Shown here: piece after piece, positions 10,748-64,000 of the stretch
Numbering within the stretch: the first letter of the stretch is position 1
Layout: the number at the start of each line of letters is the position of its first letter
NCBI GenBank assembly: GCA_965226795.1
Contig: CBDDDZ010000005.1
Location: 2,976,001 to 3,040,000, forward strand
Direction: 5' to 3'
Length of the DNA stretch: 64,000 bases
DNA from: Candidatus Latescibacterota bacterium
GTDB lineage: Bacteria; Latescibacterota; UBA2968; GCA-2709665
Translations under genes and position numbers: made by a program
Notes under the pieces: generated by a model
Seen by the model: only the letters and a program-made list of their open reading frames with translations
Told to the model about the DNA's origin: nothing
Database searches by the model: none

Positions 10748-11584
10748 TTATCTGTACCAATATGCCCGTGAAATCTGTCGAAATTGTCCGGGGGTCATTC
10801 CCGCCTCTTTGCGAAAGGCTTCGGATAATCGACTTTGATTCTTGAAGCCGCATCGTGCCGCAATGACGTGCATGCGATCGCCCGTGGATCTGAGCATGCG
10901 CTTGGCCCTTTCGATCCGGTGATACCGCAGGCGATTTCGAAAGGATGTACCAAGCCGGTTGCGAAACAACCTCGAGACGTATGCAAGCGATAAATTGAAT
11001 TGCCTGCACAGATCGCTTCGACGAAGCACGGGATTGGAGGCATGTTCTTTCAGATACACGTCCATCCGGATCGCAAGTGTCTCCACGTTAGGGTACAGGC
11101 GATCGAGCGATTCGTGGATCGAGGCAAACAGTTCATCTTCGTTAACCGGTTTGACGAGGACATCCTGGGCACCGGCCTTCATCGCACCAACGGCTGTCTC
11201 GGTGGAGTCGGTGTCGATCAGGATGATGACGTCGGTGCGCAGGGATTCCTGCCATACGGTCCGCTGAATTTCCAGACCGTTAAGATCCGGCAGGTCGATG
11301 TTCAGGATGGCAATATCGACATGCGAGGTACGGATGAATTGGAGCGCCTCGCGACCGGAACGGGTTGTCTGTACACACCACGTCTCCGACGCCGCCCGGA
11401 TGATGTTCCACAGCCGCCCGCAAACCTTGGTGTCGCAATCCGCGACGAGGAATCTGATGCTCCTGCCCGGTTCCCGAGACGTTAGAATGTGGTTGGCTGC
11501 GATTGACACAATAAGAAATTTTCTATATATTTCCGGTCCTGAGAGTCGCATCCTGTCCCCCGGCACAGAAGCGCCGGGGGACAA
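10748..11584 (-). CDS. Response regulator with AraC-type HTH (atypical receiver)
   Basis: REC-like AILNIDLPDLNG...AMKAGAQDVLVKP and AraC signature IAARCGFKNQSRLSEAFRKEAGMTPGQFR; start uncertain. Confidence 0.85.
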   Translation of the reverse strand: MSPGASVPGDRMRLSGPEIYRKFLIVSIAANHILTSREPGRSIRFLVADCDTKVCGRLWNIIRAASETWCVQTTRSGREALQFIRTSHVDIAILNIDLPDLNGLEIQRTVWQESLRTDVIILIDTDSTETAVGAMKAGAQDVLVKPVNEDELFASIHESLDRLYPNVETLAIRMDVYLKEHASNPVLRRSDLCRQFNLSLAYVSRLFRNRLGTSFRNRLRYHRIERAKRMLRSTGDRMHVIAARCGFKNQSRLSEAFRKEAGMTPGQFRQISRAYWYR

Positions 11585-12002
11585 AAAGGTTGTGCGCCTT
11601 TCTGGTGGATAACCGTCGGTTTTCGACTTTGGCCGGTCAGGGAGCCGACGATTTCTTTATATCCGGCCGTACCGCAGACTTCCCTATCGGAAGCGTTGGG
11701 CGATGCGGCCCCGACGCCCTTGTTTCCGGTGACGAACCCTACGCCGGCTCCGCTTTCCTGATCATGAACACATCCGTTCCCGATGGTCGACTCGGACGAC
11801 GCGCATGCCGACACAGTATGGATATAGGTTGGCACGCGTCCCGTAGTGGGAACATGAGATTTGGTTATACCCATTGACAAAATTACAATATAACCCGGAA
11901 CCCGTGATCTGAATGTGGTATTAGAGTCCATTCTGGTGGAATTTCGATGAAAACCGCGCCTGTTCGACGCCATCGGACGCCCCGGTTGGACTCTGGAAGT
12001 CT

Positions 12003-46481: not shown

Positions 46482-46574
46482 CCACCGAAGTGAGGGGAGA
46501 TGGGGACGGCTTTGCCGCGGTCCTTCACGACGCGGTATGGGTCGGTCCTTGTTCTGATGGAAGATTCTCGACGT
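46482..46574 (-). CRISPR. Degenerate hybrid unit: half array-2 repeat, 37-bp spacer, degenerate repeat B
   Basis: CCACCGAAGTGAGGGGAGAT (46482-46501) and TCCTTGTTCTGATGGAAGATTCTC (46546-46569). Confidence 0.7.
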
Positions 46575-46594
46575 GTCCGCCTTCGATTGTTCAT

Positions 46595-46885
46595 TTAAGC
46601 CTCTCTTGGGATGCCTGCCGCTGCTCCAAACGCCTCTTGTGCTTCCCGTATCTTGACGTCCAACAACGCCTCATGTATCTCCTCTTGTATGTCCTGCTCC
46701 GCTTGCGTAAAGACATCGGCGGACCGCCGCCGGTAAACTTCCGTTCGGAATTCTTGGTTGTCCTCCCTGATCTTGTCTTGAAAAGATTCCCCTACCGCCA
46801 CTTCCATATCCGTCGCTGTCGACGGGTTTTCTAGCACGGCATTCTTTACCGCCTGCTTCAGCATTTCTCGCCTTCGATTGCTCAT
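46595..46885 (-). CDS. Hypothetical acidic helical protein between CRISPR-like repeats
   Basis: 96-aa ORF with GGGAGG RBS; fills the interval between repeats at ~46539 and 46903. Confidence 0.65.
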   Translation of the reverse strand: MSNRRREMLKQAVKNAVLENPSTATDMEVAVGESFQDKIREDNQEFRTEVYRRRSADVFTQAEQDIQEEIHEALLDVKIREAQEAFGAAAGIPREA

Positions 46886-46902
46886 TTAAGCCCTCCCAGA
46901 TG

Positions 46903-46938
46903 GTTTAAATCCTTGTTCTGATAGAAGATCTTCACCGG
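46903..46938 (-). repeat. Solitary CRISPR-like repeat B
   Basis: GTTTAAATCCTTGTTCTGATAGAAGATCTTCACCGG. Confidence 0.85.
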
Positions 46939-46940
46939 GA

Positions 46941-47126
46941 TTAGCGGGCGCCTGGCGGCGCGTTTTTCAGCCGCTCGTTCGGCGTCGGCTTTGGCCCACA
47001 GGGCCAACTGGGAAAAGGTAGGAACCGGCAGGCCGCCTTGTAGTCGGCAGGAGCAAACGGCGTCCCGTCGGGATGCCAGCCGCGGCCGAAAATCTTTGTG
47101 TACTTTTCTTTAGGTAGGGTAGGCAT
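46941..47126 (-). pseudogene. GWHPDGTPF small protein, diverged copy with frameshift
   Basis: RGWHPDGTPFAPADYK then shifted frame GLPVPTFSQLALWAKADAERAAE; homologous to 61868-62035. Confidence 0.7.
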
Positions 47127-47129
47127 AGA

Positions 47130-47165
47130 GATTCAATCCTTGTACTGATGGAAGATTCTCGCCGG
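47130..47165 (-). repeat. Solitary CRISPR-like repeat B
   Basis: GATTCAATCCTTGTACTGATGGAAGATTCTCGCCGG. Confidence 0.85.
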
Positions 47166-47172
47166 GTTTATC

Positions 47173-47262
47173 TCAATCGAACCAATCCCAGGGCGTAAAG
47201 TATTTGATTCCAATAACCACCACAAGAATTACAGCAAGCAAGAGTATAAATCCCAAAATCAT
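47173..47262 (-). CDS. 29-aa single-TM peptide MILGFILLLAVILVVVIGIKYFTPWDWFD
   Basis: Hand translation; AGGGG upstream; fills the interval between repeats 47130 and 47288. Confidence 0.6.
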   Translation of the reverse strand: MILGFILLLAVILVVVIGIKYFTPWDWFD

Positions 47263-47287: not shown

Positions 47288-47323
47288 GTTTCAGCCCTTG
47301 TCCTGATGGAAAATTCCGAGCGG
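47288..47323 (-). repeat. Solitary CRISPR-like repeat B (degenerate)
   Basis: GTTTCAGCCCTTGTCCTGATGGAAAATTCCGAGCGG. Confidence 0.8.
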
Positions 47324-47348
47324 GATTGTGGTAGGGCGACGGCCGCTT

Positions 47349-47900
47349 TTATTCATCTCCTCGGATCTTGGCCAGCGCCTCGCTCGCAGCGTCTGCCATG
47401 AAATCCACAGAGTCCTTAAGATTTTCGTGTATCCATTCGAGATATCTGACCGCCCGTTGCTCTCGAAACTCACCGAGTTGCCGGATGATCGTCTCCCCCA
47501 GACCGGTGCCCAAAGGGTATCGGTCTCTGGCCATGTGCTCGAAAACGCTCACGAGCAGATTCAGCAGGTGTTGGCGAATTTCCTCCGAATCCGGTGAGGG
47601 TCTCCAGACGTAACGCGGGTTTTCCCAGGACACCCACTCGTCTGGTTGACCGGGCCGAACGCGCCGTTCCTGTTCCCAGCCGCCATGGCGCATCACCGGT
47701 CCGATGGGGATGCGATCGCGATCGGGCCGGCGATGTGGATGGTTCGCACAATAGGTGTAGAAGGGGTTCTCTATCGCGATGTCCCTGATCTCGCAATAGG
47801 GCGGTATACTCTCGTCAGCGCGCCGCAACCATTCGCGCTCGCCCCGGTTCGTTCGATTGAACCAACAGGTTCCGCAACAGTCGGATCCTCCGTTGGGCAT
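47349..47900 (-). CDS. Cys/His-rich hypothetical protein with HEAT-like C-terminus
   Basis: CCGTCWFN, YCEIR, YCANHPH; GGAGG RBS. Confidence 0.7.
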   Translation of the reverse strand: MPNGGSDCCGTCWFNRTNRGEREWLRRADESIPPYCEIRDIAIENPFYTYCANHPHRRPDRDRIPIGPVMRHGGWEQERRVRPGQPDEWVSWENPRYVWRPSPDSEEIRQHLLNLLVSVFEHMARDRYPLGTGLGETIIRQLGEFREQRAVRYLEWIHENLKDSVDFMADAASEALAKIRGDE

Positions 47901-48114
47901 CGCTCAGCCCTCCGCCCGGTTGTAACTCCGCAACCTCTCCCGCAACCGGTCATGCAGTAGCGCTCGCACCGTCACATCGTTCGGTCCAATCGAAATCCTC
48001 CGCAACGCATAACATAAAGTCCATTTGTCGCAAGTATTGCGACAACATTAAAAAAGCTATCGGCTGTTAGCGGGCAGCCGTCAGCCAGAAACAGTGAGAA
48101 AAGGAGCCGGTGTG

Positions 48115-48297
48115 AAGGTGGGGCAGACATTCCTGTCTGCCCTTATCATTGTCCTTCTGTCGCGATGCAGACAGAAGCAAGGCTTGCGCCGTCCTCTTTC
48201 CAGTGGGGAGACGGCGGCGAGTTGCGGCGTGCCCAGACACAGGATTCTGAGGTTTCGGTTTGATGTAAGTGAGCAGACAAGAATGTCTGCTCCACCC
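48115..48297. repeat. REP-like family B inverted pair
   Basis: GGTGGGGCAGACATTCCTGTCTGCCC and inverted GCAGACAAGAATGTCTGCTCCACC. Confidence 0.7.
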
Positions 48298-48480
48298 TTA
48301 CAAGCCTTTGTTCGAATTACCGCTTGAGCGCGTCAACAATCTGAGACAAAATGCCTGTACTTGCTTCCACATTCCGAAGCAGCAAGGCGCCACTGTCACC
48401 TGTGTGCCTGCGGCGAGCGATGCTGTCGGCTTTTTTCATTCCATCCTCCTCGTTGAGTAGACAGATGCAGATCCAACCGC

Positions 48481-49214
48481 TCAGAACCGTTCACGGATGG
48501 CCCAGGCCTTGATCAAGTGGTGGGCGATGGCGATGGGTCCAGGCACCGACAGAACTTTGCTCTTGCCGTCGAGGGCCAGCAGCACTTCGCGACGCTCGAA
48601 CCAGTGCGCGTCGGACATCTCCTCATTGTCTATACGAATGGCGGTGGTGACCGCTTCCGCCAGGCAGCCGATCATAAGCGAACAGGGAAACGGCCATGGC
48701 TGCGAGGAGTGGTAGCGTACGTTCTTCACCCCGATACCCGCTTCCTCCATCACTTCGCGCGCCACCACCTCCTCGATCGCTTCCCCCTGATCGACGAAAC
48801 CGGCCAGGGCGGAGTACATGCGCAGCCGCGAAAGGCGACCGTGCGACTGCCCGAGCAGGCAACGGTCGGTGGCGGGGTCCCGGCGGTACGGCAATCCTCG
48901 AAACGCCAGCCCCGACCGTCCGCAACCCGGGCGGCTGCCTCGGGGAAGGGGGACATGTCTACGGCGAAGTGCGCGACCGCGTCCATCAACCCGAGGAAAA
49001 TCGGCTTCGCTCCGGTCGCAAAGGTCCGGATCCGTTGCGTGTGCAGCCAACCAAGCCGCGGTCGCAGGCAGTCGTCGATCAACACTTCGAGATCCCGGAA
49101 GGGCAGGAACCTGCTGCCGGCGGCGGTTTCGGCGCGATGGATCCAGGCTTCGTCCCGACGTTCGCGTTCGGCACGGTCGAGAGGATTGCCGGCGAATGGA
49201 TGCTGGGCATTCAT
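48481..49214 (-). pseudogene. nudC: NAD(H) pyrophosphatase with internal deletion/frameshift
   Basis: N-terminal FAGNPLDRA; Nudix box AGFVDQGEAIEEVVAREVMEEAG and SQPWPFP in another frame; zinc-ribbon region absent. Confidence 0.75.
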
Positions 49215-49407
49215 GGATTGCGGTTACCGTAGCAGGCCGACGGGATGTAGACGGGGGAGTATCCGCACCTTAGCCGGTACTCTATCACGTGCAACTTCGG
49301 CGGCGCTGGATCACCATCCGGATGTCCAGCGCACCGCCGACCTGATGCGTCAACGTGAATGCAAACAGCCGGATATATCCCGCGTACTTTAGTCAGTTGC
49401 TGTTCCA

Positions 49408-50283
49408 TCAGGTGTCGAACAGGCTGTGCAGCCATGTATCGGCCTCTGGAATGCCGTCGGCGTTAAACACGAACTCCTGGCCGGGGCTGGCGCTCTTGAC
49501 GTAGGCCCACGGACCGTAGCGCTGCCACTGTTTTTTGCGATGATAGCTAAGCATTGGCTGCCCGTCGACGCGACAGAACCAGCGTGGCAGTCTCCAATAC
49601 GACCGGCTGCTCGCTCCGGGTGCGGTCAACATGACTCGGTCATTGGCACCTGAAAAAAGGCCGCCTCCGTTCGTTCGAGTTTCCGTTCCGCCGATGTTGA
49701 GTGTCCGGGTCGCAACGTAAACCGTGTTGTTCGGCGGCCATGATCGTCCATTGGGATGCAAAGGGTTGACGTGGGGATGGTCAGACAGCCAGGGCCGGAC
49801 TGTGCGGGCGCCGGCCGTATCGGTACCCACAGTAACGACCTCGGCCACCTGGAGCCAACCGAATAACCGGTGCACATCAGGAGCGTTCGATGCGTACTGC
49901 CATGTGCCCCCCTTCGCCGGTTCCGCGGCGCGAAACCAACCAAAGAATAGAAAGAGGTCGCCGGGCCCAACACCCTGGTTTTTCAGATGGCGTTGAGCGG
50001 TCTCGGCCTGCCCGAACGCCGCCAGCCAGCCGGGCGAACGCACAAGGGCATTGGCATTCAAATCGGGATCCAGATGACACCGGTCTCGTCCTTTCACTTC
50101 GCCGTTGGTCAAACACTCCACAATTTGGCCGAGAGACGTGTTACGCCACCGAACGTCATTGAATCGCGTCGGACTTCCGGGGTACGGAATCGGTAGGGAC
50201 AGGGCAGTGCCGTCGGGAAAAATGGGGCTTGGCTTGCCGCCATACTTCGCATCGAAACCCTTGCGGCTGAAGACAATCTTCAT
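49408..50283 (-). CDS. Nucleotide modification associated domain 3 (Nmad3)-like protein
   Basis: SRKGFD..GG.PSPIFPDG..SLPIP, HLDPDL, GDLFLFFGWF, HPH, GQEFV. Confidence 0.75.
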   Translation of the reverse strand: MKIVFSRKGFDAKYGGKPSPIFPDGTALSLPIPYPGSPTRFNDVRWRNTSLGQIVECLTNGEVKGRDRCHLDPDLNANALVRSPGWLAAFGQAETAQRHLKNQGVGPGDLFLFFGWFRAAEPAKGGTWQYASNAPDVHRLFGWLQVAEVVTVGTDTAGARTVRPWLSDHPHVNPLHPNGRSWPPNNTVYVATRTLNIGGTETRTNGGGLFSGANDRVMLTAPGASSRSYWRLPRWFCRVDGQPMLSYHRKKQWQRYGPWAYVKSASPGQEFVFNADGIPEADTWLHSLFDT

Positions 50284-50456
50284 TGGTACTCTTCCTCCAT
50301 TGGTCCGGTCAGGTTACCCAAGCTTACAGCAAAGAGAAAGAACCGGCAAGGTCAACGATAACATTCTTGCCAAGGTCCCCAGCAAGTCGTGGGGCGCAAT
50401 TCGGGCAACAGTCCACGCATCCTAAAGCGTTTCATCGATGTAAACGCTCATGACGG

Positions 50457-50492
50457 GTTTCAATCCTTGTTCTGGTGGAAGATTCCCAGCGG
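50457..50492 (-). repeat. Solitary CRISPR-like repeat B
   Basis: GTTTCAATCCTTGTTCTGGTGGAAGATTCCCAGCGG. Confidence 0.88.
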
Positions 50493-50686
50493 GTTAGGCG
50501 CAACGAATGTGACAGGAGCATGTCGGTCTGGAGGTGTCGAATTGCATAGCAACTTCTGTCCATCGGGAGTCAGAAAATCGCGTCGAGGACGAAATCTACC
50601 CACCACTGCCCACCCGGATCAGCGAGGCTGGAGCAGAGACTTGGGTCTCAAAAGCGATCCGACGGGTTGTTTGTTCGATGATACTC

Positions 50687-51750
50687 TTAACGCTCGTCCG
50701 TCCTGCGTTTAAGTTCGTCGGCAATCCAATCGGCAGCATCGTGACGATTCATGCCAGCGAAGACACATCGAACAGGGAGATTGTAACCTGTTTCTTTTCT
50801 CACATCTCGTATTCTTACACCGTTGTCATCGGACACGATTGTTTCCCAAACGACCTTCACATGGTACTCACGCTCCTGTCCGAAAACGGTTGTGCCAGAG
50901 ATGACTTGGCCGTCAACGATCCTCCCGGCCGCCAATACACCTTTTTTGTTGACATAAGCAAAGACCCGCTGGTCTTCAGCACTTCCTGACAGATTAGTTG
51001 CACCCGTCTCATAGCCGTGAATGGCAATTACCCCCTGATCAAACATCTTGCGATACGCATTTGGGGCGTAGGTTTCGTTCGTATTGAAGATCCAATCGCC
51101 CTGCCACTTTTCTGCCGAAACGTCCTCTCCTTGCGACTGAATCTTTGGCAATGGCGCGATGTCCATCAGGATTTCTGCATCATCGGAATTTGCGTGGAGC
51201 GTGAATGGCACGAAGTTTATCGGCACACCGTATTCATGAAGCCATTTGACTATCCTCAACAAACCCTCATCAGACGCCGGAGCGACGATAATAATCCGGT
51301 GGCCTTGTTGCGCTTTTGGAATGTCCTTCTGATTAAATTCAGGATCGTCGGTTAGCTCTTGAATCCTTTCTAGCAAGGGGACATATGGGCTTCCGCCATG
51401 GCGTAGGGGCCAGTATTCTCGGTCCAGTTTTCTAGATCTTCATAGCTCTTTCCGGTCATTTCAGCAGCATATTCGAGCAGTTGGCCTACCGTCGCTCTAT
51501 CGGACCAGTCCCGCTTTATTTCGACGATGACCAAACGCCCGTCAGCGTCCAACGCCAAAATGTCTCCCATGCGTTTACCGGCAACGGACTGACCAATCAC
51601 CAGAATCTTCTCGGCACCAAACAGTAGATCGGGGTTCCGCGCCATCCAGTTTTCCAGGTTCTTTTCTGTAAGATTCAACTTTGACGCGGGCCGTTCTTCA
51701 TATGATTGAACCGCGGTCTCTTCTCCGTCGCGGATTAGCTTAAATAGCAT
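50687..51750 (-). pseudogene. NucS/DUF91-like PD-(D/E)xK nuclease with C-terminal domain, split by frameshift near 51400
   Basis: EKNLENW, DILALDADGRLVIVEIKR, GQLLEYAA; continuation RIIIVA in ORF 50687..51376. Confidence 0.65.
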
Positions 51751-52078
51751 CGGTGTCCCCTCCATCGGTACGGTTCACCCTCACGCCATATGGGAAACAC
51801 ACAGTCATGCCGCGTATCCGTACGCCGCACAAAGGTTGGATCCCTGTGCGGGTGGGGAAAGACCGGCCAAGCACGGGCGCCGACGTCGTCCGGTCCGCTC
51901 TCCCGACCCAAGTGAGGTGAGATGCTTTTTCCCCGATCACTCTGCGGCGTATCCAAGTGTCGAAAAATGCGACGCGAGCTAACACACCAGCTCGTCGGCG
52001 AACGCATCTTCGATGTCCCGCGTCAACTGCAATCTTGCACACATCGGGCCTTTCACGGCGAGGATTCAAAGGTCCTGA

Positions 52079-53413
52079 TCAGTCTCTACCCGCGTTACTC
52101 TGCAGCGTCTTGTCAATCATCGTGGAGAACACCTGTTGAAACTGCTCGCAGATTTCAGATCGAGCCAGGTTTTGCAGGGGAAAACTCGGACGCCCCTTCA
52201 GACACCTGTCCAAAGTCACGTCGTCAATCCGGCACAAATCAGACCAGAGTTCTTTGCGAGCATTCTCTGTATGGAATGGGGCGACCATGTATTGGAATTG
52301 GACGACCACGCGGTCAGCCTTTATGCTGAAGGTCCACTGCAACAATTCCTTACCGTCTGCCAATGGCAATCTGTCGAGTTGGAACCAGATCTCCGGCGGA
52401 TCGGTATTGCGCGTCGGCATTCGGTTGAAATACGCGACCCTGCGGCCCGATCCTTCGAGTTCGACGTGTTTCCGGTGCGCCCACGCAATCAGTTCCTCGG
52501 CAATTCGAGCACACTCGCAGCCGGCACGGACCCCCAACTCATGCACAAATGAATCCGGATCGACAACCATGCCGCCCTTGAGTGGGGGGACTCGAAACTC
52601 GGCAATGAGAGGCGCGTGGTCGCTCCGGGTGCCCATGACGTTGTGATCGACTCGCAGCCGCGTGCACCGATGCGCGAGTTCCTCCGTGGCATACAGCCAA
52701 TCCAGCTGTGTGCCCGGGTTGCCGCCGAACGTTCGCACGTGGCGGCAGTCGCCGGCACCGCATGGACAATCCGGCATGGTGTCCGGACGATCCTCTGCGA
52801 TGGTAGCGAGATTGACGAGCCCGAGTGATTCGATGGCGCAGAACAGGGCGCGGTATCGAGGCAGTTCGAGCGTGTCAGGACGAGTTGCAGTTGTAATATT
52901 GAAGTCGCCACCCAGAATGACGCGCCTGCCGTCACCCGAGTCAAACAGCGGAATCAGGTCGGCGATAACACGGAACATCCTTGTTTGCGCATAGCCGTCA
53001 TCCATCGCGCCATACACACTCACACAGGTGATAGGGCCGACTTCAGGCACGTGGATTCTAGCAACAATCACGGAACCCGGAAGGCTTCCCAGCATGCTGA
53101 ACCTCGTGGCGCCGTATCGTGTACGTACGGCATCGATCTCCTCTGTTTCCAGGTCACAGGCGAACGCCACAACCGACGATCCCCAGGGCCGCCGGCCTGC
53201 GATCTCGCGGTATACGAAACGGTTACGGGGGATGTCAGACGGAGCAACGCTTTCCTGGAGCAGCATGACGTCAGCCTTCCTCTCCGTTTGAAGGTAACGC
53301 CATGCGTCCTTGCGCTGCTGCGAAGTCCGCTTCCAGTGATCCATGTTCCATGTGCCGATAGACAGGTTTCGCACAACTGGTGTTGAACAGGTCTTCCGGT
53401 CGCCTGCGGTCAT
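52079..53413 (-). CDS. Endonuclease/exonuclease/phosphatase (EEP) family protein with extra C-terminal domain
   Basis: TWNM, LQE, GGDFN, LDW, SDHAP. Confidence 0.85.
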   Translation of the reverse strand: MTAGDRKTCSTPVVRNLSIGTWNMDHWKRTSQQRKDAWRYLQTERKADVMLLQESVAPSDIPRNRFVYREIAGRRPWGSSVVAFACDLETEEIDAVRTRYGATRFSMLGSLPGSVIVARIHVPEVGPITCVSVYGAMDDGYAQTRMFRVIADLIPLFDSGDGRRVILGGDFNITTATRPDTLELPRYRALFCAIESLGLVNLATIAEDRPDTMPDCPCGAGDCRHVRTFGGNPGTQLDWLYATEELAHRCTRLRVDHNVMGTRSDHAPLIAEFRVPPLKGGMVVDPDSFVHELGVRAGCECARIAEELIAWAHRKHVELEGSGRRVAYFNRMPTRNTDPPEIWFQLDRLPLADGKELLQWTFSIKADRVVVQFQYMVAPFHTENARKELWSDLCRIDDVTLDRCLKGRPSFPLQNLARSEICEQFQQVFSTMIDKTLQSNAGRD

Positions 53414-53706
53414 TCAATTCCTCCACTTCGGTCGAGGCATTCTGCAATAGACGGGGCTGTCTTTCGGATCCTCACAGGCCAAATTCCGGTGAATGCATTT
53501 CGGGTTTACTTTCGCTGCCCGCGGACCTGATGTCGGTCCGAAACCGCACGTTTGCCAGGCCAGGAACCTGTGTTCTTACGAATCGCCGCGTCGAACTGAA
53601 TCGCCGTAAAGTATCCGGAGTGCAGGTGCGAAATGTACCTACCGTTTGCCAAACAAAGTGCTGTCAAACCCTCACGAGAGTGCTAAATGGTCCCCGCGGT
53701 CTGCAA

Positions 53707-53815
53707 GTTTCAATCCTCTCCCCCCACCAAAGTGAGGGGAGATTTTCAGAAACAGTTGTCGCCAATCCGTGTAATCTCTGTTTCAATCCTTGTTCTGATG
53801 GAAGATTCCCGACGG
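53707..53815 (-). CRISPR. Hybrid mini-array: array-2-type repeat, 36-bp spacer, repeat B
   Basis: GTTTCAATCCTCTCCCCCCACCAAAGTGAGGGGAGAT (53707-53743); GTTTCAATCCTTGTTCTGATGGAAGATTCCCGACGG (53780-53815). Confidence 0.85.
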
Positions 53816-53897
53816 TGTGTGGAGCGCGAGCGAGGCACTGCTGTTCTGTGGGGTGTGTCTCATGTACGGTTACGACGCGGGGACCCACTATCCTCGG

Positions 53898-54980
53898 TTA
53901 GGCCAGGTTGGCAACGCGGCGCTCGGCGGCGGCGATGTCGGCGGCGCCGTCGAGCACGGTGATCTCCAGGTGGAACTCGCGTGTGGCGCCGGGTTCCAGG
54001 TACTCCAGGGAGTCGTGCCTGCGGTTCCAGGCGCGCCCGAGGGGCGAGCAGTTGCCTGGCTCCACGCCGGTCACGTAGCCGGCGGCGGCGAAGTGCTGCC
54101 ACTGAGTGACCAGCGGCAGCTCGGCAGCCGGCATGCGCCACTGCAGGCCGTACGCCAGCCGGTCGTTGATCAACGCAACGGTCACGTTGCCGTTGGCGTC
54201 CGGCACCGGCCGGTGCACGTATACGTCGTCGCCGGCGCCCGGCTCCGGGGCACGCGCCCGCTCGTACGCTGCGGCATCGACCGGGCGGTCCTGCAGCCAC
54301 TCGGTGCTGAGTTGGCTGTTGACCAGGAACCGGGTACCCTCGTCGAGCAGGGGGAAGCCGGGATTGGTGTGGTACAGCAGCATCAACGGCGAGCGCAACC
54401 CGCCGAGGTTCTCCACTCGGTCGTGGATGCTGATGCGGCGCTCGCCCAACGTAGTGGTGATTTCGCGGCGCAGCTCGAGCGTCGTGCCAAGTGCCACCGC
54501 TTCGCGCATGGTGCCGGCGATGCGCAGGTGGTATTCGTCTCCCTGCCAGCTTCCGCCGGCGCTCACGTCGCGCGCCGGGATGGCCGACAGCCGCCCGTGC
54601 AGGCCCAGTTCCTCGCCTTCCTCCTCCGGGTCGGTTTCGGGATGGCCGACGAAGGTCAGGCCGCAACTGATCAGCAGGCCGCCGAAGAAACTGCGCATCC
54701 AGCCGTAACCGGCGGGCTCGAAGAATGCCGGTCCGACGTCGCCGGTGGCGCTGCGGAAACACAGCGACCGCCCCTGGTAGGTGGCGGCGGCGATGTCCAG
54801 CGCCCGTCCGGGCAGTACCGAGAAGCTCAGCCCGGAGGCGTTGCTCACCTCGATCAATCCGGCGCCGCGCTCGTTGCCCTCGGTCAGCTCGGCGCGGCGA
54901 ACGGCGGCGAGCTGGCTCATATCGCCGACCAACCGCAGCAGCTCCGCCTTCGTGTAGTCGCGTCCAAACAGGTGTGCCAT
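53898..54980 (-). CDS. DUF4432 / aldose-1-epimerase-like protein
   Basis: VLPGRALDI, FFGGLLISCGL, LHGRLS, DRVEN, LYHTNPGFPLL, GVEPGN. Confidence 0.85.
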   Translation of the reverse strand: MAHLFGRDYTKAELLRLVGDMSQLAAVRRAELTEGNERGAGLIEVSNASGLSFSVLPGRALDIAAATYQGRSLCFRSATGDVGPAFFEPAGYGWMRSFFGGLLISCGLTFVGHPETDPEEEGEELGLHGRLSAIPARDVSAGGSWQGDEYHLRIAGTMREAVALGTTLELRREITTTLGERRISIHDRVENLGGLRSPLMLLYHTNPGFPLLDEGTRFLVNSQLSTEWLQDRPVDAAAYERARAPEPGAGDDVYVHRPVPDANGNVTVALINDRLAYGLQWRMPAAELPLVTQWQHFAAAGYVTGVEPGNCSPLGRAWNRRHDSLEYLEPGATREFHLEITVLDGAADIAAAERRVANLA

Positions 54981-55067
54981 GCTCGCTCTCTCCTCTCGTG
55001 GACGGGGCGGCACCCGGCCAGCGGTCGTGCCAGCGGATGTCGCTGCCGATGCCGCCGGTAGGGCCGA

Positions 55068-55235
55068 TCACCCGCCCCATAATCGCCGCGCCGTTACGCC
55101 GGGTGGCTCGCCGGGGGCAACGTGAGCGCGGCCGATCTGTGCTACCGAGGTACAGCCGATGAGCGCCATGGTGCGGCTCATCTCCTCGGCCAGCAGGCTT
55201 ACCTCGTAGCCGACCCCCGCTTCACCGCCGGCGCC
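55068..55235 (-). pseudogene. 3' fragment of FMN-dependent alpha-hydroxy-acid oxidase/dehydrogenase
   Basis: GAGGEAGVGYEVSLLAEEMSRTMALIGCTSVAQI begins at the first base after repeat 55236. Confidence 0.7.
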
Positions 55236-55271
55236 GTTTCAATCCTTGTTCTGATGGAAGATTCTCACCGG
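55236..55271 (-). repeat. Solitary CRISPR-like repeat B
   Basis: GTTTCAATCCTTGTTCTGATGGAAGATTCTCACCGG. Confidence 0.92.
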
Positions 55272-55450
55272 GTTATCGCGCTCGGCGTTCGGCGGCTCGT
55301 TCGGCATCGGACTCAGCCCAAAACGCCAGCTGAGCGGGGGTGGGGACGGGCAGGCCTGCCTCGCGGTAGTCCTTAGGGGGCAAAAGGCGTCCCGTCGGGG
55401 TGCCACGACTGTGAGAAGGTGTCGGAGTGCTTGTTGGGTGTTTTTGTCAT
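55272..55450 (-). pseudogene. GWHPDGTPF small protein copy, +1 frameshift in a G run
   Basis: MTKTPNKHSDTFSQSWHPDGTPFAP-stop; G5 at 55376-55380 versus G4 in the intact copy. Confidence 0.7.
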
Positions 55451-55455
55451 ACGCA

Positions 55456-58400
55456 GTTTCAATCCTTGTTCTGATGGAAGGGTTCTGACCGGCCGCGGGG
55501 AAGGCGCTCGTTTGGCTATACCCCCAAAACTGTTTCAATCCTTGTTCTGATGGAAGTGTTTCGACCGGAAAAAATCCGAGAGCACCGGAGACAACCGGGG
55601 TTTCAGTTTCAATCCTTGTTCTGATGGAAGTGTTTCGACCGGCTGCCACCCGAGCCTACCGATCCGCCAATACCCGTAACGTTTCAATCCTTGTTCTGAT
55701 GGAAGTGTTTCAACCGGTATATCATACTGGGTCTGGAACAACAACATGGATACCTAGTTTCAATCCTTGTTCTGATGGAAGTGTTTCGACCGGCCTGATC
55801 GCCAGGACACACAAAGACGTCGAGAATCGAGTTTCAATCCTTGTTCTGATGGAAGTGTTTCGACCGGAACCACACCTGCGCGCCGTCCTTGCGGATGGTA
55901 GGGTGTTTCAATCCTTGTTCTGATGGAAGTGTTTCGACCGGAAAAACGACCAGTTGCCTAGATGCTTGGCGCTGATGCGTTTCAATCCTTGTTCTGATGG
56001 AAGTGTTTCGACCGGCCGCGGCGGCCACCGGTGGAAGATAGACCGGTACTTCGGTTTCAATCCTTGTTCTGATGGAAGTGTTTCGACCGGGATTGTGACT
56101 TTTTTGATCGCTCCTGAAGGACAATGTTTCAATCCTTGTTCTGATGGAAGTGTTTCGACCGGTCAATTACTTCATGGCAGTCACAACAAACGACTGGGGT
56201 TTCAATCCTTGTTCTGATGGAAGTGTTTCGACCGGTAACATCTGAGATTTTCTCAGTGTTCCCTCATGTTCGTGTTTCAATCCTTGTTCTGATGGAAGTG
56301 TTTCGACCGGCCAAGCAGCCAGATCATGAGGTCTCCTCTTTCAGATGGTTTCAATCCTTGTTCTGATGGAAGTGTTTCGACCGGCAGCGAGCCCACCGCG
56401 CACCACTGCACGGCGGTGGTACTGTTTCAATCCTTGTTCTGATGGAAGTGTTTCGACCGGTAATCCCCCTTGAAATGCTTCACCTGGGCCTGTAAGGTTT
56501 CAATCCTTGTTCTGATGGAAGTGTTTCGACCGGCCAACCAGTCTATTGTCGTGGGCTCGTCGGGGTCCACGTTTCAATCCTTGTTCTGATGGAAGTGTTT
56601 CGACCGGACGGTGGGCAAGCGCAAGGAAGCGCCGGAAAAGATGTTTCAATCCTTGTTCTGATGGAAGTGTTTCGACCGGTGGTGTCTACTTCGGTTAGGG
56701 TGCCGGTGGTCATCTGGTTTCAATCCTTGTTCTGATGGAAGTGTTTCGACCGGTGCACATCGGCAAGCTTCGCGGCGTTGGCCTGTGAGTTTCAATCCTT
56801 GTTCTGATGGAAGTGTTTCGACCGGCCACCAGAATAGTTGCCCGGCCTTTATCGTCTCGAGAGTTTCAATCCTTGTTCTGATGGAAGTGTTTCGACCGGC
56901 CAGTCTTTCTTGTTCGCAATTAGAACACGGGCTTTTTCGTTTCAATCCTTGTTCTGATGGAAGTGTTTCGACCGGAAAGATCCGTATTGAGTTTGGGCCG
57001 CGGTCGGAAAAGTTTCAATCCTTGTTCTGATGGAAGTGTTTCGACCGGCAAGCTGCAACTCAACTCTTGTCGCTTCGTCCAAAATGTTTCAATCCTTGTT
57101 CTGATGGAAGTGTTTCGACCGGGGTTTTCCGGGGTACAACGACTGACGTCCGGCCGGCCGGTTTCAATCCTTGTTCTGATGGAAGTGTTTCGACCGGGAT
57201 CGAATCTCGATATCTTATAGTCACCGGCCGCTTCAGTTTCAATCCTTGTTCTGATGGAAGTGTTTCGACCGGTGACGATGGAGATTTGCGTAAAGATTTA
57301 AGACATTTCAGTTTCAATCCTTGTTCTGATGGAAGTGTTTCGACCGGTGGGTTCCGGTACTTCGGATATCCGGAGAAGTTGGCTGTTTCAATCCTTGTTC
57401 TGATGGAAGTGTTTCGACCGGCGTGTGGGCCAGCATAACCACGCTTGCCCGGAGTATATGTTTCAATCCTTGTTCTGATGGAAGTGTTTCGACCGGCCTT
57501 GCCGCGCTGGTGTCTATGGTGGCGGCATTTCCATGTTTCAATCCTTGTTCTGATGGAAGTGTTTCGACCGGCGTTGCAAGGCTTTTATTGCCGGGTGTTG
57601 AACCCTCTGTTTCAATCCTTGTTCTGATGGAAGTGTTTCGACCGGCGTAGAAACTTCTTGGCCCACGCCTCATCTTCCCTGCGTTTCAATCCTTGTTCTG
57701 ATGGAAGTGTTTCGACCGGCAGATACACCTATGAACATAGACAAGTAGAGATTACAGTTTCAATCCTTGTTCTGATGGAAGTGTTTCGACCGGTATTAGC
57801 CTCTTGGGCTGCGATGAAGCTATTCTTGTTTCAATCCTTGTTCTGATGGAAGTGTTTCGACCGGGCTGCTGCAGCTATTCTTATACTATCTAGCGGGAAA
57901 AGGTTTCAATCCTTGTTCTGATGGAAGTGTTTCGACCGGTATCATGGCAGACTCACAGCGAGCGGCGAAATATTGTTTCAATCCTTGTTCTGATGGAAGT
58001 GTTTCGACCGGGAACTTTTGGAAAAAGCCGGGGGTAAGGTTGGAATTGTGTTTCAATCCTTGTTCTGATGGAAGTGTTTCGACCGGTCCGGATGGTACTG
58101 GCGGGAACCAGGTTTTGTTTGCCAGTTTCAATCCTTGTTCTGATGGAAGTGTTTCGACCGGCCCGCCGGCAGGGCGTCGTCGGTAGTGATGAGAAGCCCG
58201 TTTCAATCCTTGTTCTGATGGAAGTGTTTCAACCGGAAAATGGCTTGTGCGGCCTTTCGATATTTATATCGTGTTTCAATCCTTGTTCTGATGGAAGTGT
58301 TTCGACCGGAGGGCGGCTCGTGACGTCGATATTTATCTGGGGTGGCTGTTTCAATCCTTGTTCTGATGGAAGTGTTTCGACCGGCCTTGCCGACATTCTC

Positions 58401-61056
58401 GAATGGAGCATTGATATAGTCGTTTCAATCCTTGTTCTGATGGAAGTGTTTCGACCGGTCGCCTAAGCCGGTTTGCGTCTGCAAAAACTCATTACGGTTT
58501 CAATCCTTGTTCTGATGGAAGTGTTTCGACCGGTTAGCCTCCAGCGCCAAATACTCCTCACGAAGATCCGAGTTTCAATCCTTGTTCTGATGGAAGTGTT
58601 TCGACCGGCCGGTTGTGCTCGCGTAGCTGCGCCCGTGATGTGATGGTTTCAATCCTTGTTCTGATGGAAGTGTTTCGACCGGCCCGAAACAAAGAGGCCG
58701 TCACGTTCGCGCGGCTGGTGTTTCAATCCTTGTTCTGATGGAAGTGTTTCGACCGGAGGATGCCGTTGGCCTTTGAAGGCCACTTGGTATCCCGTTTCAA
58801 TCCTTGTTCTGATGGAAGTGTTTCGACCGGCGTGGGGTGTGCGTTTCGCTCCAACAAGCCATATCTGTTTCAATCCTTGTTCTGATGGAAGTGTTTCGAC
58901 CGGCCCCCACCTCACGCACGAGGAAGCCTAAGAAGAAATAGTTTCAATCCTTGTTCTGATGGAAGTGTTTCGACCGGCGGGCTCATGTCTGTATGGCCTG
59001 CGACGGATCAGGTCGTTTCAATCCTTGTTCTGATGGAAGTGTTTCGACCGGAAATTCCCACGCACTCGTTTCCCGGTGCTCATTTTGGTTTCAATCCTTG
59101 TTCTGATGGAAGTGTTTCGACCGGTGATCTAAAGAAATTGCAGGATCAGGTTGCGGCGAAGGAGTTTCAATCCTTGTTCTGATGGAAGTGTTTCGACCGG
59201 GTGCGAAGACAGAACCTCCCAATACCCTACTTGGTGTTTCAATCCTTGTTCTGATGGAAGTGTTTCGACCGGCGGGGAAAAAAGTTAAATGAAATTCCGT
59301 TTGTATTTATGTTTCAATCCTTGTTCTGATGGAAGTGTTTCGACCGGTCGTAACGTGACGGATGCGATATCAATCAAATTGATTAGTTTCAATCCTTGTT
59401 CTGATGGAAGTGTTTCGACCGGTGCACACGGAACGGCTGACGCTTCAGGCTGAACGGAGTTTCAATCCTTGTTCTGATGGAAGTGTTTCGACCGGCGCTG
59501 CAGACGTTCCCGGCTTCAGCGTCGTAGATGATGTTTCAATCCTTGTTCTGATGGAAGTGTTTCGACCGGCGCAAGGGCCATGCCTCGCCGCCCAATAGCG
59601 TGAAAGTTTCAATCCTTGTTCTGATGGAAGTGTTTCGACCGGTCATTGAAAAATTGCACCAAGTCGGGCGTCTGGTCGTGTTTCAATCCTTGTTCTGATG
59701 GAAGTGTTTCGACCGGTGAACACTGGCATGGCGCTTCAGCTTTACCACGAATTGTTTCAATCCTTGTTCTGATGGAAGTGTTTCGACCGGGCCGGAGCCG
59801 GGGGTTTTTTATGCCTCTAATCCCCCGGTTTCAATCCTTGTTCTGATGGAAGTGTTTCGACCGGAGAACCTTGAAATACGCATCAGCTACTGGGTATGGA
59901 AGTTTCAATCCTTGTTCTGATGGAAGTGTTTCGACCGGTCTGGGTGGCACGGGTAATCTCAGGGCGGTCTGGAAGGGGTTTCAATCCTTGTTCTGATGGA
60001 AGTGTTTCGACCGGCCGCATAGATGCCCGCCTGAAGGCTCCCGAACAATGTTTCAATCCTTGTTCTGATGGAAGTGTTTCGACCGGAAATGAAACAACAC
60101 GCAACATGGATCAGTATAATAAAAGTTTCAATCCTTGTTCTGATGGAAGTGTTTCGACCGGTTGTCTCTGTCGGCCCGTTCGTTCTTCAGGTCCTCTTTC
60201 TGTTTCAATCCTTGTTCTGATGGAAGTGTTTCGACCGGTCTGCCAAATTTCGTCTGCATGAAACTTGTCCTCCTAAGAGTTTCAATCCTTGTTCTGATGG
60301 AAGTGTTTCGACCGGGAAACAATCAAACTCACAAGGGAAGTAGACAATGACGTTTCAATCCTTGTTCTGATGGAAGTGTTTCGACCGGGGGGGTGTAAAT
60401 GGAACACTGGGAGGGCGACGAATGAGTTTCAATCCTTGTTCTGATGGAAGTGTTTCGACCGGCAACGTTCGCGCCTCCGCAAAGATCCCTACCGTACGGG
60501 TTTCAATCCTTGTTCTGATGGAAGTGTTTCGACCGGACGTTTCGGGAAGCAGGCGTTAGGACTACCTGAATAAGTTTCAATCCTTGTTCTGATGGAAGTG
60601 TTTCGACCGGTTTCGGGAACGGCAACGCCGGCAACTGTTACGTTTACGTTTCAATCCTTGTTCTGATGGAAGTGTTTCGACCGGTGGCCTGACCATGCAT
60701 TTGAAATGCTCGCCACTCGATGTTTCAATCCTTGTTCTGATGGAAGTGTTTCGACCGGTTATCATGATAGGCTTGCGCCGTTTCCTCAGCTTTTGGGTTT
60801 CAATCCTTGTTCTGATGGAAGTGTTTCGACCGGCTTCCTTTTTTTCTTACGTGATACGTTGGGGTACCGGTGTTTCAATCCTTGTTCTGATGGAAGTGTT
60901 TCGACCGGTACTTAAATCTCAAAGGTATCATCCTATCTCCCCAAAGTTTCAATCCTTGTTCTGATGGAAGTGTTTCGACCGGCACGGGTTTTGGTAGATC
61001 TTGAAGTTGTCCATATGGTGTTTCAATCCTTGTTCTGATGGAAGTGTTTCGACCGG
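55456..61056 (-). CRISPR. CRISPR array 1: 76 repeats (hand count) of 37 bp with ~35-40 bp spacers
   Basis: Repeat GTTTCAATCCTTGTTCTGATGGAAGTGTTTCGACCGG; ends ATTGAAAC on minus strand; degenerate repeat at 55456 marks the trailer; class 1 (type III/I-B-like) style. Confidence 0.99.
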
Positions 61057-61634
61057 CCGAGGTTCTCCACTCGGTCGTGGATGCTGATGCGGCGCTCGCC
61101 CAGCGTAGTGGTGATTTCGCGGCGTAGCTCGAGGGTGGTGCCAAGTGCCACCGCCTCGCGCATGGTGCCGGCGATGCGCAGGCGGTATTGGTCTCCCTGC
61201 CAGCTTCCGCCGGCGCTCACGTCGCGCGCCGGGATGGCGGACAGTCGCCCGTGCAGGCCCAGTTCCTCGCCTTCCTCCTCCGGATCGGTCTCGGGATGGC
61301 CGACGAAGGTCAGGCCGCAACTGATCAGCAGGCCGCCGAAGAAACTGCGCATCCAGCCGTAACCGGCAGGCTCGAAGAATGCCGGGCCGACGTCGCCGGT
61401 GGCGCTGCGGAAACACAGCGACCGCCCCTGGTAGGTGGCGGCAGCGATGTCGAGCGCCCGTCCGGGCAGCACCGAGAAGCTCAGTCCGGAGGCGTTGCTT
61501 ACCTCGATCAATCCGGCGCCGCGCTCGTTGCCCTCGGTCAGCTCCGCACGGCGAACGGCGGCGAGCTGGCTCATGTCGCCGACCAACCGCAGCAGCTCCG
61601 CCTTCGTGTAGTCGCGTCCAAACAGATGCGCCAT
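61057..61634 (-). pseudogene. Second DUF4432 copy truncated at the terminal repeat of array 1
   Basis: Near-identical to 54403-54980; ends at DRVENLG and runs into the repeat. Confidence 0.9.
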
Positions 61635-61830
61635 GCTCGCTCTCTCCTCTCGTGGACGGGGCGGCACCCGCCCCATTGTCGCCGCGCCGTTACGCCGGGT
61701 GGCTCGCCGGGGCAACGTGAGCGCGGCCGATCTGTGCTACCGAGGTACAGCCGATGAGCGCCATGGTGCGGCTTATCTCCTCGGCCAGCAGGCTTACCTC
61801 GTAGCCGACCCCCGCTTCACCGCCGGCGCC

Positions 61831-61866
61831 GTTTCAATCCTTGTTCTGATGGAAGATTCTCACCGG
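61831..61866 (-). repeat. Solitary CRISPR-like repeat B
   Basis: Identical to 55236-55271. Confidence 0.92.
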
Positions 61867-61867
61867 G

Positions 61868-62035
61868 TTATCGCGTTCGGCGTTCGGCGGCCTGTTCGGC
61901 ATCGGACTCAGCCCAAAACGCCAGCTGAGCGGGGGTGGGGACGGGCAGGCCTGCCTCGCGGTAGTCCTTAGGGGCAAAAGGCGTCCCGTCGGGGTGCCAA
62001 CCTCGGCAGAAAGTATCTGAGTGCTTGTTGGGCAT
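61868..62035 (-). CDS. 55-aa protein MPNKHSDTFCRGWHPDGTPFAPKDYREAGLPVPTPAQLAFWAESDAEQAAERRTR
   Basis: Hand translation; below ORF-track cutoff; fills the interval between array 2 and repeat B; two homologues in the window. Confidence 0.7.
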   Translation of the reverse strand: MPNKHSDTFCRGWHPDGTPFAPKDYREAGLPVPTPAQLAFWAESDAEQAAERRTR

Positions 62036-62054
62036 ACACATAATATTCGAAATG

Positions 62055-63477
62055 GTTTCAATCCGCTCCCCCCACCGAAGTGAGGGGAGATCTACCAGTC
62101 AGAGACGCTTTACCAGATGTCATGGGCGTTTCAATCCGCTCCCCCCACCGAAGTGAGGGGAGATCTACCACGTCGACATCAGATCGAAAGCTGTTTTCCT
62201 GTTTCAATCCGCTCCCCCCACCGGAGTGAGGGGAGATCGACGTCTCGGAATCGACGCTGTCGACCTCATACGTGTTTCAATCCGCTCCCCCCACCGGAGT
62301 GAGGGGAGATGTACCCAGTCCCACGCTGTCGTCAGCCACCCTATGTTTCAATCCGCTCCCCCCACCGGAGTGAGGGGAGATGTTGTTTTTGCAGGGCCAG
62401 GACACCCTTGTTATCATTGTTTCAATCCGCTCCCCCCACCGGAGTGAGGGGAGATTCAGCGCACCCCACGACCCGGTAAAATTTCTTACGAGTTTCAATC
62501 CGCTCCCCCCACCGGAGTGAGGGGAGATCACAGGATGATGCCGCCAGGCGCTTTGTAAGCGACGTTTCAATCCGCTCCCCCCACCGGAGTGAGGGGAGAT
62601 CCTTCGGGGCCGCCGATTTGCCGGCTGCGAGTGTCGGGTTTCAATCCGCTCCCCCCACCGGAGTGAGGGGAGATACAGGAAGGGCCCGGGCAAATTGGCA
62701 GGTGGGCATTGTTTCAATCCGCTCCCCCCACCGGAGTGAGGGGAGATCCCCTGGGCGCACTGGCAACAGCGGCGGTGGCTATAACGTTTCAATCCGCTCC
62801 CCCCACCGGAGTGAGGGGAGATTTGCCGAACAACCAGGGTTCCCCCGATCCCCAACAAGTTTCAATCCGCTCCCCCCACCGGAGTGAGGGGAGATCTATA
62901 CGCAGCATTTTCACGTCAGGATGTGCTTTTGTGTTTCAATCCGCTCCCCCCACCGGAGTGAGGGGAGATGGGCTCCCGTACCGTTTCCCGGCCCGCCGTT
63001 TGGGTTTCAATCCGCTCCCCCCACCGGAGTGATGGGAGATGCAGATTTCGTTACGGGGGCCGGTATCTCTTTCAGGGTTTCAATCCGCTCCCCCCACCGG
63101 AGTGAGGGGAGATCAACATATATATAGCTGTTTGCGCCGGGAACACCGCGTTTCAATCCGCTCCCCCCACCGGAGTGAGGGGAGATCTGCCGGGTCCATG
63201 TTGGGTCGTTTGTCGCTTCCAGCAAGTTTCAATCCGCTCCCCCCACCGGAGTGAGGGGAGATCAGGGACGCCGCGCCTACAAGCGCCACGCCATCAGTTT
63301 CAATCCGCTCCCCCCACCGGAGTGAGGGGAGATGTTTCGCTACCCCCCAACCCAAGCTCACCCTCTATGGTTTCAATCCGCTCCCCCCACCGGAGTGAGG
63401 GGAGATAAGTGTCTACAAACGTATTGCGGCGGAGTTCTCTGTTTCAATCCGCTCCCCCCACCGGAGTGAGGGGAGAT
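62055..63477 (-). CRISPR. CRISPR array 2: 20 repeats of 37 bp, probably type I-C
   Basis: Repeat GTTTCAATCCGCTCCCCCCACCGGAGTGAGGGGAGAT with strong hairpin; two variant repeats at the left (trailer) end. Confidence 0.98.
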
Positions 63478-63738: not shown

Positions 63739-64000
63739 CCTGAAAAATTCACAAAAAAGGTAGTTTCCTTACCCAAGTCATTGTATTATATTGTGGTTAC
63801 GCAAATAACCATAACACAATGAAACAGGAGGAAACTACCGTGGGAGTTCAAGATACACATCACAGGGTGTCTTTCGCAAGTCTTTCTGGTAAGCCGGTAG
63901 AAGCCACCTTCGACGGAGGCATCCTGACCAGCGACAGCGGGGTGATGCTGCTTCGTGAGGTGGAGGCCAGAACCGGGATTTTGCATAGGATGGTTGCGGC
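63739..64000 (+). mobile_element. IS1380-family element: left end and transposase N-terminus (partial)
   Basis: Terminus CCTGAAAAATTCA; AGGAGG RBS, ORF from 63819/63840 with FDGGILTSDSGVMLLREVE. Confidence 0.8.

Follow-up and report, generated by a model that had tools for sequence, protein, structure and literature searches.

A short open reading frame that directly follows the last repeat of a CRISPR array raises the question of whether it is a gene and, if so, what keeps it there. We addressed this question in a window of 64,000 nucleotides from a Candidatus Latescibacterota bacterium (assembly GCA_965226795.1, contig CBDDDZ010000005.1, positions 2,976,001 to 3,040,000), in which an earlier note, made from the letters alone, had described three copies of a microprotein family of about 55 residues and had read it as a CRISPR accessory protein, toxin, or regulator. 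All three copies were recovered at the reported places: a tblastn search of the whole genome found them with E values of 3e-35, 9e-13, and 1e-7, the next of the matches listed being unrelated (E 0.1), and a search with a wider profile returned the same three places. The intact copy (copy 1) does lie behind the trailer repeat of one array (array A) and a second copy (copy 2) behind that of the other (array B), and two of the three are indeed frameshifted, copy 2 by a run of five G residues at 55376-55380 where copy 1 has four and copy 3 by a 4-nt deletion that it has in common with a related genome, G013. That each copy ends at a repeat B needs qualification: the repeat is a degenerate variant of repeat B, which also bounds other genes, and copy 3 has a repeat on both sides.

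All three copies lie on the minus strand; read along it, both arrays end in ATTGAAAC (Table 1). Copies 1 and 2 are not independent, because both fall within one duplication of about 1 kb (54398-55438 versus 61052-62032, 96% identical) that includes a DUF4432 gene. Copy 1 encodes 57 amino acids from its first ATG, which lies 13 nt past array A's trailer repeat, and 55 from the ATG at 62035 that had been taken as its start before. The extra G of copy 2 may be a true lesion or an assembly error. The same 5′ allele is in frame on a 2.7-kb contig (L064), and one base of the G run is missing in one contig of run X1, a contig possibly derived from copy 1. One RNA-library contig covers 54945-55364, which attests to the presence of the sequence only, and in the placement of contigs the joints at 50480-53776 rest on 23 to 24 letters of repeat; that placement left out the runs labelled sponge metagenome, whose shares were small. 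L064 (2,667 nt) is labelled Tectimicrobiota and carries a run of repeat, ORF, repeat, DUF4432, repeat, spacer, and repeat identical in order to that of the window; this is a recent transfer or mis-binning.

Table 1. Coordinates of the microprotein copies, arrays, repeats, and cassettes in the window
Feature	Position	Strand	Remark
96-aa ORF, last repeat-B variant, and repeat-A fragment	46482..46902	-	distal end of the island; ORF 46595-46885, repeat 46539-46575
Degenerate repeat B	46903..46939	-	abuts the stop of copy 3
Microprotein copy 3	46941..47126	-	frameshifted by 4-nt deletion; ATG +3 behind repeat-B variant
Degenerate repeat B	47130..47166	-	directly upstream of copy 3
Putative 29-aa hydrophobic ORF	47173..47262	-	alone between two repeat-B variants
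Cassette with Nmad3 gene, NUDIX remnant, and unnamed 183-aa gene	47288..50456	-	Nmad3 49408-50283; 183-aa gene 47349-47900; ends at repeat-B variant 47288-47324
Split NucS-like gene	50457..51886	-	51370-51765 and 50687-51376; PADLOC PDC-S11; ends at repeat-B variant 50457-50493
Repeat-A remnant and endonuclease/exonuclease/phosphatase cassette	51887..53706	-	remnant 51887-51923; ORF 52079-53413
Mixed mini-array	53707..53816	-	repeat-B variant, 36-nt spacer, repeat-A variant
Full DUF4432 cassette	53817..55235	-	between two repeat-B variants; 70% GC
Degenerate repeat B	55236..55272	-	abuts the stop of copy 2
Microprotein copy 2	55273..55450	-	one extra G; ATG +5 behind trailer repeat of array B
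Degenerate trailer repeat of array B	55456..55492	-	immediately precedes copy 2; AAGGA is the putative ribosome-binding site
Array B	55532..61056	-	75 repeats of 37 nt ending ATTGAAAC; type I-B/Cas6b-type
Truncated DUF4432 cassette	61052..61830	-	within the duplicated stretch; array B's first repeat cuts it
Degenerate repeat B	61831..61867	-	abuts the TAA stop of copy 1
Microprotein copy 1	61868..62041	-	intact 57-aa ORF, WHxDGTP..DY..G.PVPT family; 5′ end unlike copy 2
Array A	62055..63477	-	20 repeats of 37 nt; adjoins type I-C cas genes right of the window
IS1380 transposase (start)	63819-64000		between array A and cas1

Selection on codons was measured on the 27 intact of 35 copies from 14 stitched loci, the 8 broken copies being left out. 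In the microprotein frame, dN/dS was 0.17 for close, 0.19 for middle, and 0.28 for distant pairs, and it was also 0.17 among the 43 closest pairs; it was 1.3 to 3.3 in four other frames and 0.24 to 0.47 in the antisense mirror frame. It is extremely improbable that the conserved element is an RNA structure rather than a protein, as might be suspected of a gene that sits within the CRISPR transcript between processing sites: RNAalifold detected no covarying structure in 16 copies (consensus fold of -2.0 kcal/mol, 6 pairs, none with a compensatory change), third codon positions vary freely (0.61 versus 0.84), and the protein is conserved across phyla. That reading is already largely refuted, and the protein-level selection suspected earlier from synonymous differences is borne out by the dN/dS values together with the lack of conserved RNA structure. 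Judged by its codons, the microprotein ORF is a real protein gene of an unnamed family of about 58 amino acids. Copy 1 has no match in Pfam, NCBIfam, PADLOC, or PHROGs, and two of 28 alignment members have Pfam matches at chance level; what is defined here is a conserved microprotein family that annotation pipelines miss.

Among 61 relatives, the microprotein occurs in 12 of 14 genomes of the genus, in 1 of 7 others of the family, and in none of 39 beyond; the two genus members without a match are both fragmented assemblies. The wider profile finds it in 14 of 168 genomes of the phylum, with every match at one locus, the trailer of a cas hot spot, and all 35 copies in the 14 stitched loci lie on the repeat strand and are thus co-oriented with the array transcript, as had been proposed. 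Linkage to CRISPR is tight in this lineage, but a CRISPR-specific accessory role is not supported: none of the five clear homologues in other phyla with long flanks (Chloroflexota and Binatia records) has a CRISPR repeat nearby, and two relatives, G002 and G009 (single contig, 97% complete), keep intact copies while giving no match to cas1, cas5, Cas_Cas7, DevR, or Cas6b. One of these five homologues lies between AbiEii and RES genes, one in a prophage head module, and three between housekeeping genes. By sequence, then, the family also exists without CRISPR in other phyla. The prophage homologue (L076, 4932-5156) is antisense, between a head-morphogenesis gene, whose C terminus has an ADP-ribosyltransferase-like match, and a probable scaffold gene.

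Of 78 matches from a profile search of 1.84 billion representatives, 47 were short or single-domain members; the other 31 were dropped as long repetitive proteins in which only a 14-residue WHPDGT stretch matched, many times. The loci L081, L084, and L085 were likewise rejected as motif-only. Viral contigs yielded only five motif matches of 10 to 13 residues, phage GenBank yielded none, and no longer fused form appeared among 8,000 candidates, which is weak evidence. A tree of 69 rows and 50 columns, with four rows dropped for lack of the motif, is too poorly resolved for counting captures.

The earlier note was right about the gene and missed that it is one cassette within a larger repeat-partitioned island. 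Variants of repeat B (starting at 46539, 46903, 47130, 47288, 50457, 53780, 55236, 55456, and 61831) are absent elsewhere in the genome, and together with repeat-A remnants they break up the DNA to the left of the arrays into stretches of gene size. To the right of the window, behind an AT-rich stretch and the IS1380 transposase, lie type I-C cas5, cas8c, cas7, cas3, cas4, and cas1. This type I-C set was the only one found in the window's genome (95.9% complete), with no cognate cas6b match for array B, which is an orphan as far as the cas searches reach. Array B (55456-61056 with its trailer repeat) is without a leader and is docked into the DUF4432 gene at a short CCG-CCGAGG microhomology.

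Gene-sized partitioning by repeats is also found in all 13 relatives with the microprotein, and in G015, which belongs to another genus and has cas6b beside its array, the trailer is partitioned alike without the microprotein gene. A repeat profile gave 269 matches on the island's repeat strand and none on the opposite strand. The locus is a cas hot spot, occupied by type I-C in the window's genome, G008, G013, and G014, by I-MYXAN in G001 and G012, and by I-B with cas6b in G003, G006, and G010, the 3 of 15 genomes of the genus with cas6b. Repeat B in those three genomes has the I-B profile (37 nt ending ATTGAAAC, spacers of 34 to 40 nt, cas6b, and I-B genes). At the sequence level, decayed repeats of former arrays split 3 to 25 kb into gene-sized cassettes, and this island lets one type I system take the place of another within a single locus.

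A rough custom gene finder called 210 cargo ORFs in 100 families, 144 of them co-oriented. We annotated 56 family representatives against Pfam and 36 proteins against PADLOC. Matches include ZacABC, HEC-05, PDC-S11, PDC-S37/Hhe, Nmad3, UDG-like, SRAP, and methyltransferase genes, and the cargo also comprises housekeeping-type genes and transposases. The microprotein is the commonest cargo of this island at the CRISPR trailer in its host family. A 6.4-kb ZacABC cassette (DUF6361, PLD-like, and helicase) stands behind a microprotein copy in four genomes (L029 12219-18570, L030, L032, and L033), its first ATG lying 1 nt behind a degenerate repeat in two of the four. The Cys-rich product of the 183-aa gene in the window belongs to a family of 1,401 database proteins with no Pfam domain shown; 9 of the 14 genomes have the gene in their island, in many cases one cassette away from the microprotein. 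As a partner of the microprotein it was rejected, given the size of its family and its absence from the five non-CRISPR loci. The 29-aa ORF resembles a membrane peptide or type I toxin, and a related segment end occurs in G013. At 48111-48302, a pair of 30-nt inverted repeats with high multi-contig depth is MITE-like.

A comparison of the islands shows that cassettes come and go, duplicate, and change order, and that the breakpoints lie within the repeats. For example, of 105 segments between repeats, 59 begin with the same bases as another one. Among 57 pairs at least 75% identical just behind the repeat, the DNA in front is unrelated in 40, homologous in 12, and in between in 5, and 9 of the 57 involve repeats of different type that have only their last 10 nt in common. 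With repeats masked, synteny blocks end at a repeat in both genomes in 76 of 479 cases versus 1.3 expected (26 of 265 for blocks of at least 330 nt), counts that overstate independence since the genomes are kin, and the remaining 403 ends are not at a repeat in both genomes. Cassette breakpoints often fall in the GGATTGAAAC end common to different repeat types, where new arrays also dock. We infer that recombination between repeats, by homologous or microhomology crossovers, is the simplest exchange route, with first capture possibly as oversized spacers.

Integron cassettes are compact and mostly co-oriented, end hard against their joints, are shuffled there, and are rich in genes for defence or of unknown function. 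The island shares these features, among them co-oriented cassettes shuffled at joints (all family copies and about two-thirds of cargo ORFs, by the counts given above). It differs in that the joints are 37-nt CRISPR repeats (fold of -3.3 kcal/mol, of the array-repeat family) instead of attC sites, which are imperfect palindromes with R boxes, and that no IntI-type tyrosine recombinase is adjacent; the genome has four PF00589 matches, the nearest about 135 kb away, and there is none among the scanned cargo families. Gene-sized spacers and standalone repeats are already known. SiL-E1 of Sulfolobus islandicus LAL14/1 is an oversized pseudo-spacer made of one 1.9-kb plasmid fragment (PMC3718332), and it likewise places gene-bearing DNA at a spacer position between two repeats. 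As described there, SiL-E1 belongs to one strain and has perfect repeats, whereas here many selected and re-ordered cassettes lie between degenerate repeats of several types across a family. In the mainly open-access literature, our searches returned no account of cassette islands that are joined at CRISPR repeats and shared across a family, nor of a repeat that serves as ribosome-binding site; the supplementary lists of Shmakov et al. may hold such repeat-bounded loci. The decayed end of a CRISPR locus can serve anew as a platform on which genes are shuffled and defence genes kept.

The repeat probably also supplies the ribosome-binding site of the microprotein gene. Of 35 copies, 27 have their ATG 2 to 5 nt behind a repeat (repeat B for 26 and a canonical I-C repeat for one), compared with 21 ATGs at such positions behind 252 array repeats and 9 behind 80 other repeats. 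The N terminus varies in length by up to 12 codons between copies, yet forms with 13, 17, 19, 22, and 25 residues before the invariant Trp all retain the ATG at +2 to +5, and stops often abut the next repeat. In the 26 B repeats upstream of the gene, conservation of GGA and ATTGAAAC stands at 0.97 and 0.93, versus 0.83 and 0.79 in 60 other degenerate ones (nominal p of 0.003, from repeats that are not independent), and the 5′ 27 nt are conserved no differently in the two sets. This better-kept end could instead reflect younger age or recent recombination. The AAGGA Shine-Dalgarno sequence lies 11 to 12 nt before the ATG, a long spacing, and is weak for most copies (about -5 to -6 kcal/mol); drift of the upstream repeat in G002 and G014 has produced GGAGTGA, which we take to be a stronger match to the anti-Shine-Dalgarno sequence. 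A promoter scan gave nothing above shuffles. If the upstream repeat does provide AAGGA, this would be why the ATG stays at +2 to +5, and a repeat-ORF unit of about 220 nt would duplicate as a self-contained gene. The register is absent in 8 of 35 copies, including the focal copy 1, which may be poorly translated because of its different 5′ end at +13 behind repeat A. With this locus, the idea that a CRISPR repeat can act as a signal for translation becomes concrete and open to test.

The broken copies had earlier been taken to fit toxicity or phase variation. Phase-variable genes typically carry a long simple repeat, of about 7 or more bases, and switch at one site. The G4/G5 run is short, and the lesions (the G run, the shared and hence inherited 4-nt deletion, stops, and other frameshifts) are unlike one-site switching; varied and partly inherited, they are as expected of cassette turnover, and the broken copies would reflect the ordinary birth and death of cassettes. 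Type I toxin peptides form a short hydrophobic transmembrane helix, unlike the hydrophilic microprotein (GRAVY of -0.91), and nothing found suggests that it is a toxin. A toxin repressed by Cas is not supported either, given intact copies in G002 and G009 without a match to the cas genes searched and no guide targets above chance in the fetched loci. Its most developed form, an addiction module like CreTA or CRISIS in which the promoter of a toxin ORF is repressed by a crRNA-like guide from degenerate repeats, strikes us as very unlikely. Circuits of this kind have been described (10.1101/2024.12.27.630466, 10.1101/2023.03.03.530964); CRISIS combines repeat-like units and defence genes in a type I CRISPR locus, and Shmakov et al. 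report that mini-arrays and standalone repeats make guide RNAs targeting promoters and suggest that a leftover repeat might let a lost CRISPR system return by recombination at that site. The island resembles both in having a type I CRISPR locus and defence genes with degenerate repeats and mixed mini-arrays beside them, and the breakage of 8 copies out of 35 would suit a toxin. It departs from them in that 118 degenerate repeats of the fetched loci gave one seed match with a plausible PAM versus 1.25 expected, a promoter would not fit between repeat and ATG, an entire ORF whose start is tied to the repeat takes the place of the "spacer", the site is the trailer, outside the cas operon, and intact copies persist in genomes without a match to the cas or Cascade genes searched.

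Processing of the array transcript could matter in another way. If Cas6b cut the repeat 8 nt from its 3′ end, AAGG would be severed from AUG, and a gene read from that transcript would yield protein only when processing fails, so that loss of cas genes or an anti-CRISPR would trigger defence or growth arrest. The 8-nt AUUGAAAC 5′ tag left by Cas6b-type processing, as given in PMC3479195, puts the cut between AAGG and the start; canonical B arrays accompany cas6b in G003, G006, G010, and G015, and copies stand directly behind a trailer repeat in the window's genome (twice) and in G014. Such a sensor is nevertheless doubtful, as the scarcity of cas6b in the genus and the lack of a match in the window's genome, the intact copies of the single-contig genomes that gave no cas match, and loops and stems kept no better in upstream repeats than in other degenerate ones all tell against it. 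We hold it equally improbable that the gene is a nearly neutral passenger, multiplied only through easy duplication of short repeat-bounded units, with its coding signal inherited from earlier hosts and its ATG register from one capture. Frequent breakage and truncation, absence from G015 with the same island, no match in two fragmented genus members, and a tree that leaves captures uncounted would suit a passenger, but the low dN/dS extends to the closest pairs, and N termini of five lengths share one ATG register. An equally speculative and unlikely synthesis makes the trailer a maintained, integron-like library, entered by cassettes as oversized spacers, in which the 37-nt repeat is joint, ribosome-binding site, and Cas6b switch at once and the protein reports crRNA processing and aids back-up defence. 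Overall, the reading that we consider probable is a real, soluble protein of about 58 amino acids, carried on a repeat-jointed trailer cassette with a repeat-supplied Shine-Dalgarno sequence.

What this soluble protein does is the weakest step of that explanation. It might, tentatively, be a non-lethal helper of the defence island, most likely as a small DNA- or protein-binding module. The structure model comprises a small hairpin, a 6-residue helix, and a 20-residue helix (pLDDT 78, pTM 0.53); Foldseek found no match at E 0.001 in the PDB or viral models, and VIA gave a best Z of 3.2 to unrelated chains, with several rows being small-subunit ribosomal chains at background level. Hints in sequence point to nucleic-acid handling, namely, the occurrence of the domain before an HTH in two larger proteins, a fusion to a NucS-like protein, and a weak profile match of 20 to 31 residues to the N terminus of bacterial type I topoisomerase (PDB 2F4Q and 3M4A; E 0.001 and 0.004). 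The matched stretch, HPDGTPYTDAD..L.VP, has no Pfam match and was not recovered by fold searches; we take these entries to be bacterial topoisomerase type IB and the N-terminal stretch to have a DNA-binding role, and the resemblance may be a common hairpin plus helix-cap motif. The NucS fusion occurs in G001 (L027, 11992-13257), where the PDC-S11 gene is whole, and may be a chance deletion. The same locus holds two further mixed mini-arrays with a 36-nt spacer between repeat A and repeat B, at 9342-9451 and 11528-11637.
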